Shown here in pieces: positions 1,008 to 45,459 of a stretch of DNA of 64,000 nucleotides. Every line of letters starts with the position of its first letter. The stretch's first letter is position 1. The translations under genes were made by a program, and so were the position numbers. Origin of the DNA: an uncultured Planctomycetia bacterium (GTDB lineage: Bacteria > Omnitrophota > Gorgyraeia > 2-02-FULL-51-18); the NCBI GenBank assembly GCA_964606485.1, contig CAZSGP010000003.1, positions 66,481 through 130,480 on the forward strand. Direction: 5' to 3'. The notes beneath the pieces were generated by a model. The model had not been told where the DNA came from, made no database searches, and saw nothing but the letters and a program-made list of their open reading frames with translations.

Positions 1008-1115
1008 ATGCCCAATAAGAAAAATGTTTTTAAATTCTGTACAACTAGACTTATTCAAACCATTTCTTACGGACTGGTTTTATGTTTGCTTGTCCAGGAT
1101 TTGGCCTGGGCCGCG
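1008..1115 (+). other. N-terminal Sec-type signal peptide or signal anchor of the giant protein
   Basis: MPNKKNVFKFCTTRLIQTISYGLVLCLLVQDLAWA|AP has a basic n-region, a ~15-aa hydrophobic core and an AxA-like AWA motif. Confidence 0.5.
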
Positions 1116-4100
1116 CCTGATTTAAAGTTAGGAGTTAAAGGTAAAGAGCAAAGTCTTAAGTGGGCTAAGACGCTTCTTCCCGAATTGCCAGAGTCGATTG
1201 TTAAGCTCGACGACGCTTGGAGGGGGACAGGGGGGTCCGGCCCCTCTGGCACCGTCATCTTAATCCAAGACGCCCATGCGAACCCTTCGGGGCAAATGAA
1301 TCTTGCGAAGACGTTGGACCTCATCTTTAGTCATGGTGGGGAGGGTGCTCAGGTTTTTCTTGAAGCCGGTTTCGGAGACGATTCTCTTTCCTTTTTAAGA
1401 AATCATGGCTCATTGTCCGAGCGCAAGCGAATCGCCTATAAATATTTATCTAAAGGTCTTCTAAACGGAGAAGAGTACTTGGATCTTACAAGCTCTCACA
1501 ACTTCGCTTTGTGGGGCGTGGAAGATAAGGGTCTTTATCTCAAGGCCCTTAAAAATTATAAGGTCGTAGCTCAAGACCGGTCTAAGTTCAAAGACTATCT
1601 CTCAAAGATTCAAACGACACTAGACATTCTAAAGCCGAGACTGTTAAATCCCGTTCTCTATAAGCTCGACCAAGATCGACAAAGCTATCTTAAAGATAAT
1701 CTTTCGCTTACGGATTATGCGGATACTTTACTTCGCGGAAATGACAGGAAGCGATACCCTAACCTTCAAAAAATAAGCTCTCTCAAGAGCTTAGAGCAAA
1801 GACTCTCCCAACAAAATATTTCACCCCAACACCAAAAGAGAATTGTCGAGCGACTACTTAAGCGCTCTAAGTCTCTGGATTATAAATCGATCCTTGAAGA
1901 AGTGAGGCGTTTGGAGAGCGATGCGTTTCAAGCGCTCACCCTGAATGCCGACGAACAAGCGCTTCTGGATGGTCAACGCTCGCTTGAATTCCTAAAGAAA
2001 CTTTTAAATCTAACCCTAACCCCGGAAGAATATGAAGAATACAAAAGCATTCGTCATCCTGAGCGCAGCGAAGGATCTTCTCTAAGCGAATCATCTAGAA
2101 AAGATTCTTCGGCCAGCGGGCCTCAGAATGACCCTGTAGCGCGTCTAACCGGTTTTCTCAATCAGAATATTATGATGCTCGGAAGCTACTACGAGCGAGC
2201 GCTTTTCCTGGAACCCGGATTTGACTCTATCGTGGCGAACGCCGAAAGTTTTTATGGCCTCACTCTTCAGAGAGACGAGGCCTTCGTCCAGAATATGTTA
2301 AAGAAATCGCCTCGAGCCCTTAGTATTTTAATAGCGGGTGGCTACCACACTCCTAATCTCAAGCGACTCTTGAGAGAAAAAAATATCGCTTATATCGTGC
2401 TGACTCCGCAAGTGACGCGGGAAACAAGCATCGCTAAGTATGAAAAGATTCTCTTAAATCAAAATCTCTTAACCCTAAACCCCGCGACTCTTAATATCAC
2501 TCAAAGCCACATGAGAATAGCTCCTCAAAGAAATATTGCGGGGAGCCGGCTGGTGGCAGAGGTGAAAGACTTGAACGAAACATTCAAGGAGGTTCTGCGT
2601 GATCGCAAAGAAGAGATTCGGGAAGCTAAAACTAGGATAGACGATAATTTGGCGGCCGAAATGATCGGTCAAATGCGAAGTGTTGTTGAAATTTTAGTGA
2701 AATCTCACCAGCTCGAAGCTGGAGGATTGATTGAAGAGAAGCTTGGCCGATTAAAAGAGTTAAAAAATTTAAACTCGAACGCAAAGGAGCAGATTGCACA
2801 ACTTTATGTTTTTTTGAAACGGCATTTTAGCTTGTCCCGTTTTCAGAGTTTTGTCACCGAACACGCTTTGCTTCCCGAGCAAAAAATTTCACCCTCAGTT
2901 GAACGCTACGGGTTAAATCTTGGCGATTATGCGGCGCGGTATACGAAAGCGATGAAAGTAAGTGGGATAAAAAAATTCAGCGGCGTGTACCGTGGAGAGT
3001 TGGCCGTGGTTTCTGGTTATCATTCGCTGATCAGCATCGAAGATCTGGACCGGCTTTCCGAGACGCTGGCCCGCAAAGGCTATGGTTTTGTTTTTGAGGA
3101 TGGCCTAACCTTTTCCCGGGCGGTGAATCCAAAAACTGAAAGTCCTGTAGAACTGCTTCAAATTCCCGTAACGGACTCCGAAACCGGGAAGACGATTACC
3201 CGGGTCGAGCTTGTTCTTTATGACAAGCCCGACGTTGAAGAGGAGCTTGGAAAGTACACCACGGCGATTCGCCAAAGACTTTATCCCCACCAATACTACA
3301 GAGAGACGATTCATCATCCCGATCTAAAAAGACATCAGGTGGATTTCGAGAAAAGTATTTCTGAAATCGCCAAAAGACACGGAATTAACGGACGGTTGAG
3401 TGACGATAAAATCAAAAAAATGGAGCTTTCCATCGCTCTGTCGCTGGTGGCCGAAACATTGTTTTTGAAATTGCCAAAGTCTCTGCAAAAGGAAGCCGAA
3501 GAGCTGGGTATACGCTCCGGTGGAGCGTATCCGGGCTTAGTCCATTTGCATAGCTCTATGAGAACCGCCGTGGAAACTCTTGCGAATCATGAAAAATCAG
3601 AAAAACTCATGAGCATAGACGTTGATAAGCGGACCGCAGAACAAATTGCTGATCTTAATGCGCTAGAGCAGAAACTGTCGCTCGAGAGCCAGAAAAATTT
3701 AGCGGGAAAAAACGCTTTTGTGGATAATTTCCCGCTTTTTATTTTAGACGACCATCTTTTTAAGGATATGGGGGAGCGACAACAAGAAGAATGGAAAGCC
3801 TTTTTTAGAAAAGTAGCCAAGTATTATGCTCAGATGCAATCGGATTATGAGAACATTTGGTCGGAAGATTCAACCAATCCGGCAGCGGCCATTATTGAGC
3901 CGAATGCAGTGTCGATTAATCTTTTACCTGGAAGAACAGAGGCGCAAATTTTGCGCGCACTCAAACAGAGTCATTCGCAAGAAGTATTTAGCCAAAGCGT
4001 TGATCTGGATGCAGACTGTCAATTATTTTTAAATGACATCCCCAAAATCATCACCCACAAAGGACTAGCGGAGATCAAGTTGCTACTCGTTGGCATGAAG

Positions 4101-7100
4101 CCTATTCTCCTTAGAGCAGAAAAGCGAGAGCTCTTTAAACGACTGGAAAAAGAAGTTGAGGGTGTTGAGGCACGTATACGCGCGATAGAGCGCTCGATTG
4201 GAGCAAGACTTTCAGAAGAACCCAAAGGCGCTTCTGTTGTTTGGACGCATGCCAAAGAGATGATGGACGCTATTCAAAAAAGTCCAATCGCACACAGCGG
4301 AAGAGATCAGATTAAACAATTAGCCAAAGATCTTAAAACGATCCCCAGTAAAGCGGAGGAAATTCGAAGGGAAACTAGAGAGTTGTCCGGAAAAATTCAG
4401 TTTAATAACGGAGCCGCCGAGAGATTTGATGAAATTTTGAATTCATCGCTCAAGAATGGAGAAGAAAGAGAGCAATTGGCGCGGCTTTATTGGTATCTCG
4501 ACCAAATGTTCACCGTTCGGGAAGCGCCAACAGTTCGCGTTCAGATTCAGTCCACTCAAAAGCAGTTTGGAAAGTATGCGCTGGATTATTATTTGGAATA
4601 TTTAAAAGAGGGAAATCCACAGGATGCCGCCGCGCTTAAAAGCAGGATAGCTGGAGCGGGATCTTATGCTCGGGAGGGGGTGGGCGTGACTGGTGACTCC
4701 GAAGATTTGCTTAACGATGATGAAGTTCAAAAAGCATCGCGAGTGCTGGATTTTGGAGGACTTGGATTTTTATTCGAAGACGGTCTGACCTTCGCCCGCA
4801 TTCTACCAACGACAACGAGCGCGACGGTAAAATCCTTGTTCATCTATACAAAGAAAAAGGGCGACGCCGCTATCCAAGTCAGGCCCGAGCTTTGGCTGTA
4901 CGCGATGCCGGCAGATCCAGCAACGAAGCTTTTGTTTTTTCAAGACGTCATGGGTGATTTGTATCCGCAGATCGCGCACAGTCCCTTGGTGAAGCGGGTT
5001 TTAGAACAAAAAGAGGCGCGTATTGATGATTATCCGCATCTACCCGGTTTTCTTCCTTCGAAGCTCATCCGCTCTTATTTTGACCTGACAAAGTCAGAAT
5101 CATCCCCTAAGGATTTATTTAAAAGACTGGAAAAGGCAAAAGCGCTTGAACCTCAAGCGCGACAATTAGCTCTTCATGAATTTTACGCTCACATTGGAAA
5201 GGCGCTTTATTTGACCGCAGGAAGCGAGTTTAAGGCTCGTTTCAAAGCAAAGCTTTTTTCGGGGGTTTTGCCGAATGGAGCGATTTATCTTAAAAACTAC
5301 GGGGCACAGCTTAAGAAGTACTACGCGCTCGTGGAGTCTGGCCGGGCCGATTATTGGTCGGAGCAATTGGCGGAGGATGAGCTTGCGGAGAATTTCTTCG
5401 GGGACGTCTTTGCATTTTATTGTTTAAACCAGCTTTTAAAAATACGCTCAATTTACCAGATGAGTGACGAAGACAGTTCTGTGGAATTGACGGTGTTTGT
5501 TAAAGAGTTTGTGGAAAGTCTTAAAGAAAAACATGCTCGAGGTTTGAATGCTTGGCAAATAGAGGATGAGGATGCCGCTAAGAAGATCGAATCGGTTCAG
5601 GCGATCATTCAAGAGCCCAATTGGGTCGGCAGCCCGAAGCATCTTTCAGACGAAACGACAGAGCCTTCTACGCTGAGAGCAGTTGCCAGTCATTTTATTC
5701 GCGAAACGGTTACAGAAGCTAAGAAGCTCTTTGAGAACCCCAATAGAACGGAAAATCAATTGGCGTGGATGATCGAAGGGTTGAGTATTGCCATAAGGGA
5801 TTTTACCCCCTTACTTGAAGATCGTAAGACGACTCGGCTAGCATCTTTAATTTTGGTCCTACCGGTTTACGCGAGGGCACTTTTTTACAGAGGAGATTAT
5901 TCCCAAATGCTCCGGTTTATACAATTAAACCTGCATTATTTGGCCCATTATCTGGAATCGATTGAAGAGAAAAATCTTGCTCAGGCAAATTTTGCGGTAA
6001 GCGTTCACGGGGATTTGCGTAGAACCGTTACCGACGCTATGGCTTTTTTGATCGTAAACGGAAAATACGAATTTGTAAAACCCCTGCAAGAGGCGCTCGA
6101 TAAACTGCGGTCACTCAAGCTCCCAGAGGGCGCTCGTTTAGCGGATTTAAAAGCCTCTTATATTGAATACATAAAAAGGAACAGCGAAGAAATAGACGCC
6201 GCCGTGCTTTACGTGAAGGATCCTTCAAAAGCGCTCAAAATCCAAGCGGAGTTAAGCTCGGCAATTGGTATCCTGAAAGGCGGATTTAAAGTAAAAGCGG
6301 GGGACTTTGTTGACGAGAAATTCTTAAAACTCGCCGGTCTTAAGGAATTTAACCGCTCTCAAAAGGAGCAGTTGGTCTGCCTCTATCTATTTATCAGGGA
6401 TGAATTCAAATACCCTAATTTAATTTCCTTTATCAGTAAGCCCGTGATTACTCCGGAGTCTAAAATTTCAGAATCCATGGAGCGGTACGGCATTCGAGCA
6501 AAGGATTATTATTTGCGTTATGCCAAAAATAAAATGGATACCGAAAATTTTGCCGATCATGAAGGGTTTCTAGATCAATTCATTGGTGTTTTTCGAGCAG
6601 AAGATGAGCGGGTGAGCGGGTACGAGCCTGTGATTACCAGAGAGGATCTGGATGCTCTTTCCGAGATCCTTGCGAAAAGAGGTTTTGGTTTTGTTTTTGA
6701 GGATGGACTCACCTATTCACGGACCATTAATCCTAATGCGTTGGGGCCTGTTCAAATGGTGAATCTGCCTATCAAAGACACCGTGTCCGGAAAGATCGTG
6801 GTCCGGCCTGAAATTGTTCTTTTTGATCGACCGCTCAGCGGCTCCGAGAAGATCAAGCTGTTTGATCGCCAGATGATAGAGTGGCTTTATCCGGACCTGG
6901 CTTTCTCAAGCGTATTTGGAGATCGTTTTCTTGGGCCGCACCAACAGAGCATTGAAGCGTGTATCGCGGCCATTCGCAAGTCCGGTCGAAACACCACCAT
7001 GGATGACGAGAAAATCAAAGGCGCCGCACAACTTGTGTTGTTGTCGATTATTTTTGACTCCCTGTACGAGCGCTTACCCGAAAATTTTATTGCCCGTATT

Positions 7101-10100
7101 GCCAGGATTGCGGCCACCAACAATGTAACGACTCCCGGACCCGCCTACTTAAGAATAATCGGCCGGCACGGAGTGGATGTTATTAATGATAGAAATGAGC
7201 GTGATTCACTTGGTGCTAAAGCGCCCGATCAAAGAACTCCGGATGAGAATCAGAAGATCGATGATCTGAGTTACAGCATCTCCAAGGAATCTATTAAAAG
7301 ACGGATTGGAAAAGTTTTCTTCTCTACCTTTGGCCCCTTGTATGTTTTGAATAAAAATATTCTTAGTCGTGATGGAGAGAGAGTGCCCGATGAAGTTAAA
7401 AAATTATTCGAAGATGTGTCTAAGTATTTTATTGGATTACACGATGATTACCACAATATCTGGGAAGTTCCGGAGGTGGACGCTAATAAACTTCTGCTAG
7501 AAGAACCAAATCCCATTTCAGCGACTTTGAAGCCGTACGCCTTGGAGATACAAGCGATCCGCGTGAACGAAGCTGTCGTGAATGACCCGAATTTTAAAGC
7601 ATCCAACCCCGAGAGTCATCGCGACACCGCGAATGCGTTTATCATGGACATGAAACACATTCGAACCGAAGAGGGATTGTCCCGGATGAGAAGCGTCCTG
7701 TTTGATTTGGTGGCGGCTCTTAAAACGGACAAGTTGAAAGATTTGGCCGCTCAAGCTGAAAGCGCCTTTGAAGAGGCTAAGAATAGAGTAGGTTTGGTGA
7801 CCGCCGCACGGCTTAGTATAGAAACTGGCAATCGCAATCAGGAGATTATTGATCTGTCCCGACAGGCTCTGAGAGTTTATGGTCTAAAAAATTTTGCAAC
7901 CATAATGATCGCTTCCGTTTCGGAGTCAACCCCAGCTTTAGACGAAAGCGGCGCACATCAATTAGACTTGCGTGATGCAACTGCTTTTGCAGAGCTTAGT
8001 CGATTCATTCACGAGGATTACAAAAAGGATTATTCTTATCAAGCGTTGTTCCAAAATTGGAAAGATCTGGAAAGTGTGCATCGCGGGGACGATTACAATG
8101 GGGTTTTTAAGACCCCCGCCGCCAAACAGGATGTATTTTCTTACTACATTTTTGGACGCGTAATCGCTGATGATAAAGATTTTGAAATCGCTTTGAATAA
8201 ACACGATGATGAGGACAGAATTCAGCATAGCGCTCATCGCGCCGCTAAAATTTTTACTGCCATCGACAAATTAGCCCGAGAGTCCGGAGGAGTATTTACA
8301 CTGGGCGAACTTCGAAAAGCCGTCTTTACCGATGTGGATTCAAAATATTTTGATCTGGATCTGGAGCTCATCGACCGCGCGGTACAAATTGCGACGGGTA
8401 GTTTTGAAGAAGGCGCTCGCCTCTCCTGCGAATACATGGAGATGCAAAGAATGGAATTCCTAGGGCGCATTGAAGAAAATGAGACTCGCCGGAAAAAATT
8501 GGCCGACGAACTGACTAAAAAAGCCAAGGCGTATGCGGATGAAATGGAGCGAATCCTCCAAGAGGCCAATTCGAAATTAAAATCTATTCCCAATTCGGAA
8601 GAAATTGTCCACGAAATCGTGCCAGTTATCAAAAAAACATTGAATGACGTGCTCACAAACCCCGCACTGGCGGACCCGGCCAAGTTTGAGCAGGCACTCG
8701 CAACTAACCTAGTCGACGGCATGAAAAACGGCCATCACGCGGGCATTGCAGGGGCGTTGGGGGCGGATTCTCTCAAAGATATCCAAGAGCTGCTTAGCAC
8801 AACCAAGCTAGCCGATGGGAAAAATTTTGTGCAAGCCGTCATGGACTGGCAGGAACAAAATCAAATCTTAACCAAGCTCAAAAAATACGCTGAATCAACA
8901 CTGGTTGAAGGGGTGAGTGTTCCGGAGCTTAAGAAAAAGCAAGGCTTTAAACCCGGTCAAACGGGGCAAGCGTCTGGCGCGCGATTGGCCGCTAAACAGG
9001 AAGTTGATTTTATTGATACGCTCAAAGAATTAAGTGACGACGAAAAGAAGCTTCTTAAGGAGCACTTTGTGGATATGGCGAGCCAAGAATCCAAGCCTTT
9101 GATTGGCCGGGCCGACGATGTGCGTAAAGTTGTATCCGCGCTCTCAAAGCCGAGCGGTTTTAAAAATAGCGTTCTTTTGGTCGGAAAAAAGGGCGTTGGT
9201 AAGTCGGCGCTGGTGCGCATGATTGCTAGATCCATTAAAGAAAAGAAAATTCCCGGCCCGCTTGAGCAGAGAAGAATTTATACCTTAAAAAAATCACTGG
9301 GGTCGACTCCAAGCGACATGAATGACGCGCTGGCTAAGCTTCTGCCGATTTTAGAAAAAACAAAAAATAAAATTATTATTTTCATCGACGAATTTCATGT
9401 GCTGACGCGCGGGATCAACAACACTACGGATTTTGCGGTGGCGGATACCTTGAAACCGTATCTTGAAGAGGGCCGCGTTACCATGATTGGTGCGACGACG
9501 ATTGCCGAGTGCAAGCGATTTATCGAGTCGGAGCCGGGCGGGGCATTTAAAGACCGTTTTGTCGAAGTGAGGCTGGAGGAAACAGACGCTGAAACCACCA
9601 AGGATATCTTGGACGGTTTAAAAGATTTTTATGAGGAAGAGTTTGGGATTCCCATTTCCGAAGGTGCCATTGAAATTGCCGTTGAGCTTTCGGAGCGCTT
9701 CTTGCCGGAGAAATCATTTCCCCGAAAAGCCGTTGACCTCTTGGAGAACACGCTGTCGCACGCTTCAAGTCTTGTGGCCCAGCGCAATTTGCAGATCGAC
9801 GATCTGACAAAGCAGTTGGAATTAAAAACTAAACGCTACATCGGCAACAAGAAAAAAGGTAAAAACGGAGACGACCGGGCGACGACCCAGCTTCACAATC
9901 AAATCATCACCTTGACTCAAGGCATTCTGAAGCTAAAAGCGGAGAGAGATGCTTTAAAAATCACCGAACTCAGTGATCAGGATGTCCGGCGCTACCTGGC
10001 CGATACCACCGGAATTGATTTGGCGCATTTGTCGCAAGGGGAGGCCCAGCGGATGCTGGTGGCCGAAGATGTAATTGGTCAAAAAATCATCGGCCAAGAG

Positions 10101-13100
10101 GCTGCGGTGGGTGCTATTTCCAAGGCGATTCGCCGCTCCCGCTCCGGTATGCGCGACCCCAAGCGTCCCATCGGCAGTTTTGTGCTAGCGGGTCCCACCG
10201 GCGTCGGAAAAACGGAGCTAGCCAAGGCTTTGGCCTTGTTTATGTTTGGCGATGAGTCCAAGATGAAACGCCTGGACATGAGCGAATACATGGAAAAGCA
10301 CAATGCTTCTCGAATGATTGGTTCGCCGCCGGGTTATATCGGGTTTGAAGCGGGCGGAGAGCTTACCGAATACGTCAAAAAAAATCCGTACGCGGTGATT
10401 TTATTCGACGAAATTGAAAAAGCTCATCCGGATGTATTTAATACTCTTTTGCAAATTTTGTCGGATGGCCGCCTGACGGACGGTAAAGGCGAAACCGTCG
10501 ATTTTAAAAATACAGTGATTATTCTCACATCTAATGTCGGCATGACTTCCATTGCGGATTATTTCAAAGGCTTCGAGGAATCCATTAAGCACGCTGAAAG
10601 CTCTGAGGGAATTGATCTAGCGATAAAAGGGATGAACGAAAGAATTGCCGAAGCAGTAAAGAAAGGAATTAACGGTGACCCCGCGCGTTTTAAACCGGAA
10701 TTTTTAAACCGCTTGGATGCAGTGATTCCGATGAGCATCTTGTCGCCTGAAAACGTAAAAGGTATTGCTCGTATCAAAGTGGATAAGGAAATCAGGGCCC
10801 GGCTCGAGAGCGAAAAATGGAGTGTCACTATTTTGCCGGAAGTTCACGAGCTCGTTGCAAAAGAGGGTTACGACCCCGTTTTCGGTGCCCGTCCGCTTAA
10901 CCGCGCCATTGACCGCATGATTTTAGATCCTTTAAGCACTCAAGTCTTGATGACGAAAGCTAAAGAGGGAGAAGAAGCGTCCGGAAACATCGTGATTTCA
11001 GCGATTGGCAAAGAAATTCATTTTAAAATTGATTTAAAGAAACAAGGTGTGATTCAAACCCTGCCTTATCCTGAGGAGCAAAAAGCCATTTATGAAGCAC
11101 TGTTTCAAGAAATCAATAACACTCTCGACAGTGCTGATAGCGCGCTTACGGAAGAAACGCTTAAAAAAATCCTTAAAGTTGATGATAGGGCCGGTGTTTT
11201 AAGCTCCCAAAGCGCCGACTACGGCGTTTACAAGCATAATCAGCCGCTCGCATTTGAAGCAGAAAAAGATAAATCAAAGCGCTCCAATCACAATGCTCCC
11301 AGTAAGGATTCGGGGGTTTTGAAAGCTCAGGAACTCATTTTAGCCGCACTGCAGAGCGAGCCTAAGGTAAACGCAGTAATGAAATTTATTCAATTATTTT
11401 CAAAATGGGCCAAAGAAAATAATGTCGACGCCGAGTTTATCAATCTGGAATGGACTGTTAAAGATAAGAAGCTCCTGATTCGCATTAAAAAAGCCGATAA
11501 AAATGTGATTAAAGATGACGAAGCGAAGACTCTAGTCGAATTCCTTCAGCATAATCCCAAAACCCAAGAAGAGGCTGACGAGATAGCCCGTAAAATTGCC
11601 GAAGAAAAAGGGATTACGGGCGGACAAGCCCTTTTGCGTCTCAAGGCGGCGTTTATTGCGCTCGGAGGAGAATCGACGTTTGGAACATTTGAAAACACTT
11701 ATTGGGCAAGCATTGTGTTAGATGAAGATCTTCAAAAGATGGCGGACGAGTCAAAGCTTAAAGCCGAGACAGCCTATAAGCTGAAGTTGTTGGAGGCATT
11801 ATTTGATTCTCTCCCTGAGCGGTCTATGAGTGATGATCCCAAAAAAACCAATCTCCCGATGGATCGATTTAAATTTTCTATTACCGATGAATTGTGTGGG
11901 TATAAAGGTTATAAAGCGCGCAAACCGTCCGAATCAGATCAAAATAATAAAACAGTTCTTATTTTAGTGAATCCAAAAACAGCGAACTGGAAAATATTTT
12001 TTCAGGATTTCCGATTATATTTAGATGAGTACTACCCCTATTACATGGCCCGCTATTCGGCTTTGGTCGAAAAACTTCAATTTGGAAAACTTGAAGAGCG
12101 GGAGTCGGTTGTTGTCGCGGCAGGTGCGACGGACCAAACTGTCAAAAATCAAGGGGTAGCACCGAAGTCTATTCCTCAGGAATACACGGACATGCTAAAA
12201 AACATTAATGATTTGTACCAATATTTTCCAACTAACATAGCGATTCGGCTTAAGGACAAGCCTCTAGTTGCGGCCATTGTGCTTTATCACGCCTTATTTA
12301 AAAATGATGAGCTTGAGTCTTTTATGAATCTCTGCGTAAATCAGCAAATCGATGAATTTAAAAGGCAGTTAAATGGTTTGCCGGTTATACTAAGTTTGAT
12401 TAATAGATACGATGCTACCAGTATTGAGAGCGGATCCTTGATAGCCCCTGGAGTTCTCCCGCAAATCTGCTTTGTCTCGGGCCTGGAGGAGGATGAGCGT
12501 GGTTCGTATAGAAGATTTTTCTTAGGAAGAACCGCTACAAAATTCTATTCAGGTGATAGTTCGGATTTGGCAACTCAATCAAAATTAGTTATCAACGTTT
12601 CTGAATTAAATGAGCTTCGCGAGAATCTAAAAAAAGCAAAGATCACCAGCCTCCAACGGTCGGCAGCGAAGAGCTCCTCATCTAAAGAATTAAGTAGTGT
12701 GTCCCCGGAATCTGCGGAATCTACCAAGGCCCAAGGAAAACTTTCAAGAAAAACTGTTGCAGAGCTGTTTAGACAGTTTGCCGATCAGGTTAATATCCGT
12801 GGGCCTATCGACAATGAATGTTTTGTCGAATTTAATAGGTCCAACTCGAATGAATTCGTCTTAGAAAAATATACCCAGCGCCGTCAGCAAAGGGCGCGCA
12901 TAAAAATCCAGTCGGAGAAGGGACGAATCCGGAAATTAGAAATTACGCTGTGGCCCGCAGATAAAGGACCTGTAAGAGCGCTTTATATCAACAGAGCCGT
13001 CAATCTAATCCTAGATGTTGTTTTTTTAGGTAAAACACAAGAAGTAATCGTGGTGGTTGATGATAGGGAGCTTGTTGGATTTTTAAGTGCCTATGAATCC

Positions 13101-16100
13101 AATGCAGATAAATCCGATGAATCCATGGAGACTTTAAACACTCGCGTGATCGCCAAATCCGACGCTTTGAAGCGCGCTCAGGAAGATCCTGATTTCGCTA
13201 AGGCATTGAAGTGGAGGAATAAAAAATCTGCTGCACCATCTAACCCACTCGAAGGAGATGTTAAAGCTATTCTTGAGCAAGCGCGTCAGGCCAATGAAAA
13301 TGAGTCGGGCGATCTTAGTGCTGTGAGGGGCGCCGACAATGAACTTGCCATTCGAGCCGAGGATTTTTCTTTGCTGACGACAAAGGATTTCGAAGAAATT
13401 TTAGATAGAGCTTTTTTAGTAGAAGAATCGACGCTTTCAGCTCGTGCTATCCGTTTGACGATAGGCGATTGGGCTAGAAGAAAAAACCAACTAGTTTATT
13501 TGCGCGAGCAGGAAGAGGGGGATGATTCAGTATCGGTATTCGAGCTAAAAATTGGGCAAGCGATCCAGGCGAGCGAATTGATGAAGTGGCTACTGGAGCA
13601 GGACCTTCCGACGGATAACCCCGAAGTCCAGGCCGCTTGGGGAAAAGCTAAAATTAAAATCCGCCGTTTGGCGATAGAGAAGATTACAGGAAGGCAGTCT
13701 GCCGCTTCGGCTCAAGATGTCAAAAATCAAGGACTGACACCGAATGCACCGAATGAATTTAAAGCGCAAGTCCTTCAAAGAGCGTTGGCGAATGTGCGCA
13801 ATAAAAATATTCGCCGCTTCAAGGGTGGAGCCGTAACCAAGGCGTCGGAATCTGAATCTACATTGGTTCTTTTAGACTTCCCCCAAGACGACGCTGATTA
13901 CGATCCCGATCTATTCAGTCCTAGAGTCGCTTCGAAACTGCACCCGGCGGCCATGGAGCTTGCTCGGGAGATTGTCGAGTATCTGAATGGACAGTCGGGC
14001 AACAAGCGCAAAGCCTATGTGAATCAAGACGTTGAGACCGTTTTTGAAGGGGATGTTGAGATTGAGAATGTCTCTGCCGTGGGCATTTCCTTTGAGCGAA
14101 TGACGCAAACTCTAGAAGAAGCCCAGGCTGGCACTGTCGAGCTTTTGCGCGTTGTCGAAGAGTTCCTATTAAAAAAACAAGCTTCGCTTTCAAGTGTCGG
14201 CGATAAATTAAGTAAGGTGTCCCCGGAATCTGCTACTTCAGGTTGGCAATTATTGAATCGTGAGGGGACTGAATATATCAAAATTTCTGTCCCAAAAAAT
14301 TTGGAAGATAGGTTGCTAGGGAAGCCGCTTTTACAAAAGCTAGTTTATCTTTTAGCAGTTGAAGATCTTGTGCAAGCGAAAGATTTTATAAAATCGAATC
14401 TTTCCAAAATTTTAGCAGAAATAAAGAAATTAAATGTCGGGGAAGGACGACTCTGGGCTACAGCCCCGTCCGGAACTGTATTGATTAACGATGGAGCGCC
14501 TACGGAAGGTGCGCTGATTATTCGATTGGAAGAATTTGAAACTACTTTCACAGAATCGAAACAGGAGAGTGCGCAGGTTATATTTAATTACCCTTTATTT
14601 GAAACTGACGTATATTTTAACGCCGATGAAAAAAACGGAAAAAATCTTCGGGAGGTTGGCGCGATAAAAACTCCTTTTGACCAGAGTCCTGTTTTGTGTT
14701 ATCCCGAAGAAATGATTGAGCTTCGCCGTAATCTGGAAGCGCAGAAAGCGAATTCGGGGGACACGAAACCTAATTCTGCAAAAGGCACGGGCGAATTAAG
14801 TAAGGTGTCCCCGGGTTCTAAAGAAAAAGAAAAAAATGTTTCTCAGTGGCAAAAATTTGTGGAAGAGTTGAAGACTAGCGAATCTGCCGCCCCCATCCCC
14901 CCAGCCTCGGCGGACAAGTCAGCTCAAACTGTCAAAAATCAAGCACTGACACCGAATATAACTAAAATTATCTCCCAGTTAGAATCTAAATTAAGTGATG
15001 ACAATTGGGCTGTCTGTCTAGCCGCCGCCACAGCACTCGGACCTATCTACCAAGCTCTCTTCACTCAAGGTAAGATGTCCTTAGAAACCCTAGAATCTAA
15101 ATTAAGAGATAACAATTGGGCTGTCCGTCAAGCCGCCGCCATAGCACTCGGACCTATCTACCAAACTCTCATCACTCAAGGCAAAAAAGTCTCCTTAGAA
15201 ACCTTAGAATCTAAATTAAGCGATTACGAGCGGGATGCCGCCGCCACAGTACTTGGATTTATCTACCAAACTCTCATCACTCAAGGCAAAAAAGTCTTTT
15301 TAAAAACCCTAGAATCTAAATTAATGGATCGCGATGGGACTGTCCGTCGAGCCTCCGTCACAGCACTCGGATCCATCTACCAAACTCTCTTCACTGAAGG
15401 CAAGATATCCTTAGAAACCCTAGATTCTAAATTAATGGATCGCAATGGGACTGTCCGTCAAGCCGCCGCCACAGCACTCGGACCTATCTACCAAGCTCTC
15501 TTCACTCAAGGTAAGATGTCCTTAGAAACCCTAGAATCTAAATTAAGAGATAACAATTGGGCTGTCCGTCAAGCCGCCGCCATAGCACTCGGACCTATCT
15601 ACCAAACTCTCATCACTCAAGGCAAAAAAGTCTCCCTAAAAACCCTAGAATCTAAATTAAGTGATGGCACTTGGACTGTCCAACAAGCCGCCGTCATAGC
15701 ACTCGGACCTATCTACCAAACTCTCTTCACTCAAGGCAAGATGTCCTTAAAAACCCTAGATTCTAAATTAATGGATCGCAATGGGACTGTCCGTCAAGCC
15801 TCCGTCATAGCACTCGGACCTATCTACCAAACTCTCTTCACTGAAGGCAAGATATCCTTAGAAGCCCTAGAATCTAAATTAAGTGATGACGATGAGGCTG
15901 TCCGCCAAGCCGCCGTCACGGCCTTGGGATCTGTCGCGCTATCAATGATTGTAGCGCAGGAGGCAAAACCCGCCGCGCCCGTCCCCACAGCCTCTGCGGA
16001 CAAGAAGGCTCAAAATATCAAAAGAGAATTAAAAAGCGCGTCCCCGAAATCAAAACTTCAAGAGGAGATGGAAGTGGTTGGCGAATATATTCAAAAGCTA

Positions 16101-18974
16101 CGGACAAATTCAGTAGAAGTGAAACCTGATCGCGCATCACAAGTTTCCATCACCCCAAAAACACAACAAGAGTTTGTGGATCAGCTAAAAGCCAGTGTGA
16201 TGAGCGACCCTAGGCTGGGCGAGGTGGAGGATGAACCCACGATTAGCGTTTCTAATGGGGTTGTGACCGTTCAAAAAGAAGTGGCGGGTAACTTCGATGA
16301 GATTCTCGATAGGCAAATGAAAGTGGCTTATGACGAGGGGGGAATTGTCACAGAAGTTGAGGTTGAGGACGTAAATTTATTTAATCCAAGGGATTGGACT
16401 GAGGGCAATGTTATTGATGTTGGTTTCCTTGCCGAGGGTCAGTGTTTGGTTGTAGTGGTTAAAGATGAGTCGCTCAGGTATTTCATGGATGAATTTCAGG
16501 ACGATATTACAGCGATAGCGAATTTAGGATTCAACTACGAAATAATCTCTCTTTCAGAAGCCATTCGAAGATGCGAAGAGCTTGGCTCAATTTTCAAGTT
16601 TACCGATATTACGAATTCAGACGACACAAAACCTAAGTCTGGGGTCGGCAAAGAATTAAGTAATGTGTCCCTGGAATCTGCAGTAAATTCCGTGCCTACG
16701 GTTTTCCGGCGACCAAATAATGTAGAGCTTGAGAGCGCGCAAGAAGCAGTTAGATTACTCAAAGCGCTAATCCAGTCAGGCACTTTTATTCGCATTGCGT
16801 ATCGATTTATGGATGGAGATGAAGATGTTTCCCGTAGCGTGATCAAGGTGAAAAATGACCAGGACAAATGGCTGCTGGTTCAATACAAGCCGGACCAGGA
16901 TCGCGACGGCTGGCAGCTATTTGATTTGGAAAAAATTTATCAAGACGGCGGATTTATGTACTGGAGCGCAACTTCGCAAGGATTGATCATTTCCAATACA
17001 AGAGACTATTTAGACGACTACCAAAACATAGTCCCTAGAGTATCGTCAGAAATTGCATTGGCTGATTATAAAGGTCTGCGTGCTAACTCAGGGGACACGA
17101 AACCTAATTCTGCAAAAGGCACGGGCGAATTAAGTAAGGTGTTCCCGGGTTCTACTGAGAAGGCGCGGGAATGGCTTGATAAAATTGATACTTGGTTGGT
17201 GCAGACTGAGAACTCAGATCAGATCGATCAATCGATTCGATATGTGGTGGAAGAAGATTCGATTATTAGTATGGGGTTCGGACTGGGTTTTAATGCAGGA
17301 ATGACAATGCCTCGAGTGTTCTCCATAGCCGTCAATTTTGAAAAGGTGAATTGGGAGCAATTATTTAGCGCGATCGAAGACCATGTTTTAGATGAGTATG
17401 GAGACAAAGCAGCTTTTAATTGGCGGAAATTTGTAGAAGAGCTGAAGTCATCCACCGGCGCACGGCTTTCCGAGGAAGAAGAAAAGGTTCGAAAAATTAA
17501 TTTAGCCGGCCAAGCCCCGCGGACAATGGGCCTCAAAAACTTTGCTAGCCTCATGATTTTACCGCTCTATCATGCGGAGCTTGCTCCAGAAGGCGAGATT
17601 ACGGGAGACAAAATTCATAAGGCATATGCGCGGGATTTTGCCTACGAAACTATTTATGACCGGTGGAAGGGCTCGGAGCTGATGCACGGCAATGACGATT
17701 ACAATCGAGCGCTTCCCAGCAAAGAAGAAAAAAGAAAAATGCTGTCTTATTATCTTTTTGGGAAATTTATCATCGGAGAAAAAGGTCTGGAGGCCGCTCT
17801 AAACTACAGAGACCGCGAGAGTGAAATCGAATACAGTGCCATGGTTGCTCCTAAAATTTTCAAGGCGATTGCCGATCTTACGCAGGATCGAGCGGGGAGC
17901 TTTACGATAAATGATGTTCGCAAACGACTTGTCGCTCAAAAAGAAGACGGGGAGCATTTCGAGTTGTACTTAACCCTGATTGACCGGGCAGTGGATATTG
18001 CGGAAAACCGGTTTGAGGAAAACGGTGCGCGGTTGGCTCAGGTCTATGTTCGATTCGCGGCGAGCGTGTATCAAGCACAGAAAAAAGACGGTGAGATCGC
18101 GGTGGGACAACACCGCTTTGAAATTCAGTTTAACGCTAAAAGTGGAGAGCTTCTTCTTATTGATAAGCGTTCCGGAAATTTTGAAAAAATTCCAATGAGA
18201 AATCCGGCGCTGTGGAATCCAAAATCAGGCGAGTTTCAAGTAGAGGCGTCGTTAGCGGATCTTCAGATAGCGCTGCATGCGGCTCAACGCGGAAATCGAT
18301 TTGTGATGGAGAGTTTACCGGCCGAAATATTAAATTCTTCTACAAAGACCTTGATTGAGCTCGGGGTGGATCATTTGCTGGCGGACCCTTCTCAGAGACC
18401 GCTTCTTGCGGCGGCGCTTAAAAGAATTTCCGATTCGCCACTCGCTAAAAATTCTAAAATTGTTTTAAAGTCTATCGGTAATGATATTCGGGTGAGTGAG
18501 CTTCTGGAAAATATCCCCAATAAAGACAAATGGATTGTTGGCTCGTACGAGGAGCTCGATCCGGAATATCGTTTGAACGCGCAGAGAGTCCAGGTGGGAG
18601 AGCTGGGTTGTAACGATGGGTTGCTTATTAAAAACGTCCGCTTTTTGCCGACCCAAAAAGCAACAAGCGGCGATATTTTTAATTACGAAGGTGTCCTTCA
18701 GGCAGCCCTTTTAGAAGGAAAAATTTCATCAGATGTTTTAAAAAATGCGACCCATTCGGAGTCCCAAGCCCTTATTCACGCATTTGAAGAGCTGCTTGGA
18801 CGAACGATTCCTCTCGAGCAATACGGCGCGTTTATCCAGGTGATTACGGGCGTTGAAAAAGTCGATCCCAAAGCGGCACTGGCTTTCACTGTGGCTGCGG
18901 CGTTTCATTTGAAGATCCAACAGAGAGTGGCCGGCGCGCGTCTAGCGCGTTTGATGGCCGAGCGGGCCGCTTAA
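1008..18974 (+). CDS. giant multidomain protein (5,988 aa): signal peptide, three paralogous modules, embedded ClpB/ClpC-like double AAA+ ATPase, HEAT-like repeat array; overall function unknown
   Basis: A single uninterrupted ORF of 17,967 nt. An open frame this long cannot arise by chance, and internal conserved domains confirm the frame throughout. Confidence 0.9.
   Translation: [5988 protein letters not shown]
1240..2400 (+). other. possible TraB/GumN/Tiki-superfamily-like region of the giant protein
   Basis: [13 protein letters not shown] near the start and [26 protein letters not shown] near the end resemble the GTxH...GxxHL...G(Y/F)xV motif pair of the TraB/GumN family, separated by ~360 aa. 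This is a motif-level match only. Confidence 0.25.
2770..8000 (+). repeat. three tandem paralogous protein modules (A1 ~2770-4450, A2 ~4450-6340, A3 ~6340-7870) inside the giant ORF
   Basis: Each module holds ...QLY(V/W/L)(F/Y)L...ERYG(L/I)...DYY(L/A)(R/E)Y...[14 protein letters not shown] at 3079-3110, [13 protein letters not shown] at 4760-4790 and [14 protein letters not shown] at 6681-6712, and further on KYYA...DYxNIWSE...EPN. DNA identity is only local: 20 nt are identical at 3085 and 6687. Confidence 0.6.
7870..8430 (+). repeat. module B, copy 1 (GLKNFA...DDYN...SYYIFG...LIDRAVQIA...FEEGARL)
   Basis: Paralogous to 17525-18040, where the same ordered motif string reads [10 protein letters not shown]...DDYN...SYYLFG...LIDRAVDIA...FEENGARL. 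Confidence 0.55.
9000..10950 (+). other. embedded Hsp100 (ClpB/ClpC-type) tandem AAA+ ATPase unit within the giant protein (aa ~2665-3315)
   Basis: D1 reads [11 protein letters not shown]...[10 protein letters not shown] (Walker A, 9183-9212)...IIFIDEFHV (Walker B)...IGATT...DRF. The short coiled-coil linker is followed by D2, [48 protein letters not shown] (10192-10221)...[17 protein letters not shown]...[46 protein letters not shown]...GARPLNRAI, which is about 70% identical to ClpB D2 by eye. Confidence 0.85.
14979..15935 (+). repeat. 9 tandem HEAT/PBS-lyase-like repeats (37-40 aa each; LESKL-D--W-VRQAAA-ALGPIYQ-L-TQGK-SLET)
   Basis: Tandem 111-120-nt coding repeats. The block 15020-15192 recurs almost exactly at 15461-15633, an offset of 441 nt spanning four units. 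Confidence 0.7.
17525..18040 (+). repeat. module B, copy 2
   Basis: See the first module B copy at 7870-8430. Confidence 0.55.
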
Positions 18975-45383: not shown

Positions 45384-45459
45384 CGGGGTGTGGCCCAGCT
45401 TGGTCTAAGGCGCTACCTTGGGGTGGTAGAGATCGGAGGTTCGAATCCTCTCACCCCGA
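45384..45459 (+). tRNA. tRNA-Pro (anticodon GGG)
   Basis: I folded it by hand. The acceptor stem pairs CGGGGTG with CACCCCG, the discriminator is A, and U8 is present. The anticodon stem pairs CTACC with GGTAG around the loop TTGGGGT, giving anticodon GGG with G37. The T-arm is GGAGG-TTCGAAT-CCTCT, the D-loop is long at 11 nt, and no CCA is encoded. Confidence 0.8.

Follow-up and report, generated by a model that had tools for sequence, protein, structure and literature searches.

HEAT repeats are the most frequent domain in the giant proteins of the Omnitrophota, for which a role as assembly or binding modules has been proposed (bioRxiv 10.1101/2023.11.21.568195). Authors in the field suspect that these proteins are cleaved into smaller products, and their analysis has been hampered by missing information on the cleavage points (bioRxiv 10.1101/2023.11.21.568195). 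At the nucleotide level, tandem repeats have mostly dissolved in long Omnitrophota genes (10.64898/2026.06.07.730766). Here we describe a repeat array that differs in this respect, being still 82-100% identical in DNA. It consists of nine units of about 37 amino acids (aa) and occupies positions 14979-15935 of a 64,000-nucleotide stretch of contig CAZSGP010000003.1 (assembly GCA_964606485.1; the whole 64-kb stretch is referred to as the window). We read the array, with a probability of roughly 0.65, as a HEAT-like scaffold module in a modular giant protein whose units have been homogenised by intragenic recombination.

The original prediction had treated the array without its gene context. In the list of open reading frames (ORFs), however, it is one internal module (aa 4658-4976) of a single giant ORF of 5,988 aa (1008-18974, + strand; all features of this gene given below lie on the same strand). 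The encoded protein belongs to a large family of big proteins in which an N-terminal domain (N-domain) and a C-terminal tail are conserved and the cargo modules vary, and the HEAT array is one private cargo module of this host protein.

Units and predicted fold of the array

The nine units start at nucleotides (nt) 14979, 15090, 15204, 15309, 15420, 15531, 15645, 15756 and 15867, and all of them are in frame. The predicted number of nine units held. Units 1-8 measure 37/38/35/37/37/38/37/37 aa, so the predicted range of 37-40 aa is slightly off and has to be corrected to 35-38 aa. Unit 3 is degenerate (35 aa, with a 3-codon deletion). Unit 9 keeps the motif for its first ~22 residues only and then diverges, resembling a C-terminal cap. 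Tandem Repeats Finder delimited the array to 14980-15919 and returned periods of 111, 225 and 336, of which period 336 outscored the other two. The GC skew is negative (-0.065) only in the 14001-16000 bin of an otherwise positive-skew gene, which is probably due to the C-rich repeat codons (GCC, CTC, ATC, ACC) recurring nine times.

The fold suggested before had been labelled HEAT/PBS-lyase-like. In a Pfam profile search, the generic models scored far above their cut-offs: HEAT (PF02985) reached 136.7 bits (cut-off 23.5, E=1.7e-41, 8 stretches) and HEAT_2 (PF13646) 110 bits (cut-off 27.7, E=6.9e-32, 5 stretches). HEAT_PBS (PF03130) was marginal: the cut-off is 20.9 bits and the match reached 26 (E=1e-5), with no single stretch significant. 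The HEAT part of the label is thus confirmed and the PBS-lyase part is not. TPR, named earlier as the alternative fold, can be dropped: although 35 Pfam families matched at a threshold as loose as E<=10, the 25 best-scoring of them include no TPR family.

The top sequence matches in the PDB were designed alphaRep HEAT-like proteins (6ft5_A, E=1.7e-23), which are derived from thermostable HEAT-like repeats. A single-sequence AlphaFold 2 (AF2) model of the array, with a predicted local distance difference test score (pLDDT) of 78.9 and a predicted template modelling score (pTM) of 0.71, displayed a strict alternation of helices of 7-8 and ~20 residues. A Foldseek query of the PDB with this model gave a designed repeat protein, alphaRep, PP2A-A and importins as top matches. 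All of these are HEAT/ARM solenoids, although the template modelling (TM) scores were just 0.3-0.4 because the curvature differs. Profile and model together show that the region codes for a nine-unit alpha-solenoid of HEAT-like repeats of the alphaRep/PBS-HEAT subtype, with a period of 37 aa instead of 31.

Exact tracts and the history of the array

The body of unit 1 together with unit 2 (15020-15194) is identical to the body of unit 5 together with unit 6 (15461-15635) over 175 nt, with 0 mismatches and an offset of 441. The near-identical tract of about 172 nt noted previously is therefore real and slightly longer than thought, and its identity is beyond chance. The left edge of the second copy is the junction of a chimera within unit 5: codons 1-14 of this unit are identical to unit 8 and the remainder is identical to unit 1, without exception. 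When the blocks 14979-15419 and 15420-15866 were aligned, 400 of 451 columns were identical. The 175-nt tract accounts for an uninterrupted run of matches (100%), whereas identity in the other 276 columns is 81.5%. The pairwise correspondence predicted for units 1-4 and 5-8 is present but uneven, with nt identities of 91% (1/5), 98% (2/6), 74% (3/7, which also differ by indels) and 94% (4/8), and the cross-pairs 5/8 (93%) and 4/5 (90%) are equally close. Offset 336 also yields an exact tract of 50 nt and a 300-nt stretch of 89% identity, and offset 447 an exact tract of 42 nt. Every repeat offset in the array is a multiple of three.

Patchy exact tracts and a chimeric unit 5 fit ongoing concerted evolution, which was the second of two options offered in the original prediction. 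We infer that the array is a patchwork of gene-conversion or unequal-crossover tracts over older units. Repeated intragenic homologous recombination between units, by gene conversion and/or unequal crossing-over, would keep the units nearly identical in DNA and leave behind exact tracts, 42-175 nt long and offset in frame by 336, 441 or 447 nt, as well as the chimeric unit, and the differences that persist would mostly be amino-acid changes. Among the variant codons of units 1-8, 6 are synonymous and 32 nonsynonymous, with a neutral expectation of 24% synonymous; this indicates that the DNA is young or homogenised while amino-acid differences persist. The differing residues map to the turn between the helices and to one side of the long helix, and five of the six positions that differ between the internal repeats of alphaRep are also variable in the array. 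An array of this kind may serve as a protein-binding scaffold module in the 5,988-aa modular protein.

The other option of the original prediction was a single, very recent tandem duplication of the four-unit 441-nt block (units 1-4 giving units 5-8), followed by point divergence. It would account for the four-unit periodicity, for the 91-98% identity of pairs 1/5, 2/6 and 4/8 and for the position of the longest exact tract at offset 441. However, a fresh duplication of the whole block should not have left 0 mismatches in 175 nt next to 18.5% differences in the remaining 276 columns (the probability of a 175-nt exact run under uniform divergence is about 8e-14). Units 3 and 7, at 74% identity with indels, do not fit it either, nor does the head of unit 5, which is identical to unit 8 and not to unit 1, and period 336 scores above the other Tandem Repeats Finder periods. 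We therefore abandon this scenario as quite improbable. It is unlikely, too, that the patchwork is an assembly artefact in which the true number or order of units differs through short-read collapse or a mis-join in the repeat graph: the reading frame is intact across nine units and 18 kb of ORF, the units carry individually distinct in-frame variants, the N- and C-terminal flanks of the array are distinct, and the graph permits one traversal order only, if the loop is used once. This explanation nevertheless draws on the fact that a 175-nt exact repeat is longer than the usual assembler k-mers and many read lengths. Coverage alone would probably fix the copy number of the 441-nt loop (units 3-4, the unit-5 head and the shared tract). 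Moreover, no independent copy of the locus was found in the public collections searched. A protein word-index search with the array gave nothing at E<=1e-10 (a strict cut-off that excludes weak generic HEAT matches), scans with 8-mer patterns found no relative in 185k species genomes or in JGI metagenomes, an exact 21-mer of the repeat was not found in metagenomes, and exact-sequence look-ups of the neighbours CinA and GroEL found no match.

Homologous recombination can act on exact tracts as long as these, which measure 42-175 nt. Since all offsets are multiples of three, recombination between these tracts would yield in-frame length variants; the loss of 441 nt, for example, would remove 147 codons. 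One could thus imagine a programmed size-variation or contingency module, in which RecA-dependent gain and loss of units makes cells differ in protein length or binding surface. But in-frame offsets are automatic for any coding repeat, and the collections searched yielded no relative whose copy number differs. Classical phase-variable contingency loci use units of 1-9 nt that shift the frame or the promoter spacing, whereas the units here are 105-114 nt long with offsets that are multiples of 3, and the array does not fall into this class. We consider such a programmed function improbable. The marginal HEAT_PBS match described above could be taken to indicate repeats of the phycobilisome-lyase type (CpcE/F, NblB-like) with an enzymatic or chromophore-handling role. 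We give this idea almost no credence, as the generic HEAT and HEAT_2 models score far higher, the neighbours are housekeeping genes of a non-photosynthetic-looking bacterium, and the array is internal to a 5,988-aa protein.

Several points weigh against the reading of the array as a HEAT-like scaffold module homogenised by recombination. The AF2 model is weak at the degenerate unit 3 (pLDDT 56-71), and the binding role predicted for the array follows from its fold class only. A HEAT array like this one is missing from all 150 of the N-domain relatives that were retrieved, so the array is not a feature of the family. The patchwork could partly be a product of assembly, because common k-mers and reads are shorter than the exact repeat of 175 nt. 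The nonsynonymous excess (omega about 1.7) is not significant (~0.15, normal approximation to the binomial tail) and speaks for the absence of strong purifying selection, not for proven diversifying selection. Likewise, the overlap with the variable positions of alphaRep is not significant (P about 0.12), because 20 of 38 positions vary in the array. As the latter two signals are both statistically weak, we do not claim diversifying selection on the HEAT surface.

The host protein, its family and a junction motif

Within the giant ORF, the conserved N-domain by which the family is defined (aa 1-515, 1008-2552) ends at the first G(S/A)RL motif. By blastp, the N-terminal ~510 aa are the only part of the ORF common to the 150 relatives retrieved. 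We queried with aa 1-1200 in an exhaustive HMMER search, in which the hits are cluster representatives. At E<=1e-3 it returned 5,851 of these, of which 453 also passed E<=1e-30; lengths of 2,000-7,000 aa are frequent. The top match was 56% identical (E=1.6e-148). The 150 best matches all align within query residues 1-529, mostly from near residue 15, and the N-domain also occurs as stand-alone proteins of ~500 aa. Every named relative is a hypothetical protein of Candidatus Omnitrophota/Omnitrophica, which is why the window probably stems from this phylum. The best matches of ValS, another protein encoded in the window, are only 43-55% identical and come from Thermodesulfobacteriota and many other phyla (among the matches listed), so that ValS gives no information on the taxon.

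Characteristic motifs of the N-domain are IQDAHxN, VFxEGG, GEEYLDLTS and AGG(F/Y)HTP, and its invariant residues are P61, D88, H90, N92, Q96, E119, R139, G154, G170, Y177, E263 and E298. Its AF2 model (pLDDT 82, pTM 0.76) has a split alpha/beta core with a helical insert of ~260 aa. No PDB profile matched it, and Foldseek against the PDB returned nothing below E=0.1. A likeness to the Tiki/TraB/ChaN/erythromycin-esterase superfamily was sub-threshold only and was not recovered after removal of the helical insert. A hydropathy scan and direct reading revealed a hydrophobic, transmembrane (TM)-like segment at aa 15-33 (1050-1106), the only hydrophobic segment of the giant protein. With K/K/K/R before it and AWA|AP after it, this segment can be regarded as a putative Sec signal or membrane anchor. 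Such an N-terminus stands in a paradoxical relation to the cargo of the family, which is of an ATP-dependent or cytoplasmic type (AAA+ unfoldase, kinases, PEPCK, CsrA).

Downstream of the N-domain, module A (~550 aa, FEDGLT motif) occurs in three copies with 27-39% identity, the first at aa 517-1071 (2556-4220) and its paralogs at 4344-4997 and 6132-7823. Module B (~210 aa, GLKNFA motif) is present at aa 2265-2479 (7800-8444) and aa 5483-5683 (17454-18056); the two copies are 39% identical and both are bounded by GARL motifs. Neither modules A and B nor the regions flanking the array gave a Pfam or PDB match. The last ~1,000 residues have no detectable relatives, and a protein word-index search with the C-terminal 998 aa found none.

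Between the first copy of module B and the array lies a ClpC/ClpB-like class-1 Hsp100 module (aa 2697-3323, 9096-10976; AAA, AAA_lid_9, AAA_2 and ClpB_D2-small). It contains the two AAA+ modules with Walker motifs and the D2-small domain that define this class, has a short middle domain and lacks the Clp N-domain. The module aligns with residues 180-805 of ClpC (6em8) at 435 bits, the alignment starting after the ClpC N-domain. In D1 the pore-loop KYRGEFE is replaced by PSDMNDA, while the GYIGF loop of D2 is retained. Its matches to the ClpB and ClpA models stay below the equivalog cut-offs (534 bits for ClpB, where 1232 would be needed), and it does not qualify as a full-length equivalog. An 'FKGF' loop is found at the position of the ClpP-binding loop of ClpC.

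The region around the array is rich in recurrent linkers. An 80-nt linker (…NSGDTKPNSAKGTGELSKVSPGS…; 14748-14827) recurs at 17082-17161 with 91% identity and is also visible at the protein level. A 57-nt linker (AAPIPPASADKSAQTVKNQ; 14881-14937) directly upstream of the array recurs directly downstream of it (15967-16023, 81%), so that the array is bracketed by a direct repeat. The linker motif …GELSKVSPES… appears five times (aa 3895, 4401, 4597, 5217 and 5375) and …VKNQGLTPN… three to four times (aa 3712, 4238, 4642 and 5004). Both are confined to a segment of 2.8 kaa (thousand aa) that is free of GARL; in the tabulated relatives, ELSKVSPES was absent and VKNQ occurred once in 79 listed. 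To judge by this pattern, the GARL-free half of the gene may have arisen through recent duplications, within the gene, of units made up of a linker and a module.

The GARL motif itself is found at the junctions of the protein. G-A-R-L-[SA] occurs seven times in the window protein and nine times when the first positions are relaxed (G/A-A/S-R-L-[SAV], 15 nt each, starting at 2541, 4200, 6129, 7803, 8412, 8976, 17457, 18024 and 18933), whereas the 12,902 residues of the other ORFs in the window contain none. Each of these motifs lies at the edge of an internal paralogous module or at the C-terminus. One of them (8976-8990) precedes the Hsp100 module, and as the next follows only at 17457, this module and the HEAT array share one GARL-free segment of 2.8 kaa. 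The nine sites use different codons, and the motif is therefore conserved at the peptide level. For the same reason we rejected a DNA-level role of the sites, for example as recombination signals.

The relatives display the same pattern. Outside the N-domain, GARL is the most over-represented 4-mer in the 150 relatives (511 observed, 14.3 expected), with GARM next, and G-A-R-[LM]-[AS] is 36-fold enriched across the 150 family members. GAR[LM] is followed by A in 72% of cases and by S in 16%, and no conservation extends into the flanks. Motifs within recognised Pfam domains of the relatives amounted to 0/61, where about 7 would be expected, and most of the domains are tightly bracketed by motifs (CsrA, for instance, has one motif 48 aa upstream and another 4 aa downstream). 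The motif brackets whole enzymes in this way, including ADK, PEPCK, CsrA, NUDIX and others. By Pfam, the cargo of the relatives comprises HATPase_c, NUDIX, PLP enzyme, FHA, adenylate kinase and PEPCK, and further FBPase, CsrA, aldose epimerase and response regulator. Full-length members, including the window protein, share the tail consensus (Q)GAR[LM]A-x5-[QRS][AS]A-COOH. The conserved tail of the window protein (aa 5949-5988, 18852-18971) ends in …AGARLARLMAERAA-COOH. Its motif lies 12 residues from the end, a distance that is also the most frequent one in the relatives. This tail is a possible sorting, secretion or processing signal. The window protein thus combines all three hallmarks of this Omnitrophota large-protein family, namely the N-domain, multiple junction motifs and the tail. 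None of the three was found described in the Omnitrophota giant-protein papers that could be searched.

In the simplest reading, G-A-R-[LM]-[AS] is a candidate junction or processing motif of polyprotein-like proteins. A bolder version would make it a proteolytic site, the family polyproteins that release, once synthesised, a string of cargo proteins independent in other respects (adenylate kinase, PEPCK, CsrA, NUDIX, Hsp100) and the HEAT array the adaptor of the unfoldase; this we put forward as a tentative idea that is rather more likely to be wrong than right. The conserved N-domain would then possibly be a protease or an export/anchor module. Since the stretch between aa 2657 and aa 5484 contains no GARL, cutting at the motif, if it is a cut site, would leave the Hsp100 unfoldase module joined to the fast-evolving HEAT array in one product of ~2,800 aa (aa 2658-5483). 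There the recombining HEAT surface could act as the target-recognition adaptor of the unfoldase. More generally, and speculatively, the array may supply partner or substrate binding for the Hsp100-like module.

The genes neighbouring the giant ORF are housekeeping genes (cinA, recA, alaS, his and trp genes, lepA, valS, uvrB and groEL). A tRNA gene at 45384-45459 was the only Rfam match in a scan of the whole window, and genes for membrane proteins account for an odd AT skew at 42-44 kb.

Comparison with known systems

With the HEAT repeats of the alphaRep/PBS type (PF13646, PF02985), the array shares the D-x-x-x-VR-x-AA-x-ALG-x-I signature and a unit of two helices, and its variable residues lie largely at positions that differ between alphaRep repeats. 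It differs in its period, which at 37-38 aa exceeds the 31 aa of alphaRep by six to seven residues owing to an extended helix B (…ALGPIYQTLITQGKK…). It is also natural, located inside a giant protein and made of units that are near-identical in DNA. The embedded Hsp100 module resembles ClpC/ClpB in that both AAA+ domains and D2-small align, but it is part of a giant protein, has no Clp N-domain, has lost the D1 pore-loop motif and scores far below the equivalog level.

The giant proteins described from Omnitrophota ("Archaeovorins" and others of >10 kaa; bioRxiv 10.1101/2023.11.21.568195, 10.64898/2026.06.07.730766) probably share their phylum with the window protein. Both they and the window protein are large and built of modules, lack annotation for the most part and include HEAT repeats as scaffold content, and the relatives of the window protein carry cargo of the same kinds (NUDIX, HATPase_c, response regulator). 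The window protein differs from them in its size of 5,988 aa and in having one hydrophobic segment as opposed to tens of TM helices. A Pfam search found no dockerin, C39 or SecA domains in it, and it does not belong to the "Archaeovorin"/dockerin-type giants (West-Roberts et al. 2023). The array is mildly notable in this setting, as tandem identity at the nucleotide level is uncommon in long Omnitrophota genes. Short-read assemblies of the region should be treated with caution on account of the 175-nt exact repeat, and the array is a possible site of in-frame length variation.

Coding tandem repeats under concerted evolution are a familiar phenomenon, for example in TALE repeats and in the repeats of bacterial surface proteins. 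The array has near-identical units, mosaic exact tracts, chimeric units and differences at particular residues in common with them. Compared with TALE repeats, it shows no sign of a two-residue code or of nucleic-acid binding, and its variation extends to about 20 of 38 positions.

MARTX and large clostridial toxins are giant multi-effector proteins that are processed after Leu by their own cysteine protease domain. By analogy, the window protein is giant with modular cargo, and its candidate junction motif, located between modules, places a small residue after Leu or Met (GAR[LM]|[AS]). It differs from MARTX in that no Peptidase_C80/CPD, RTX repeats or any protease domain was detected by Pfam in six overlapping segments at E<=0.01, and the cut site is a candidate proposed from the sequence.

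Measured against these systems, the HEAT array itself is ordinary, a known kind of binding-type solenoid homogenised by intragenic recombination. The interesting part is not the array but the host family, and its family-wide GAR[LM][AS] motif is the more interesting result. Conserved in peptide and located between recognisable enzymes, the motif provides concrete candidate cut points and offers a rational way to split giant proteins for structure prediction and proteomics.

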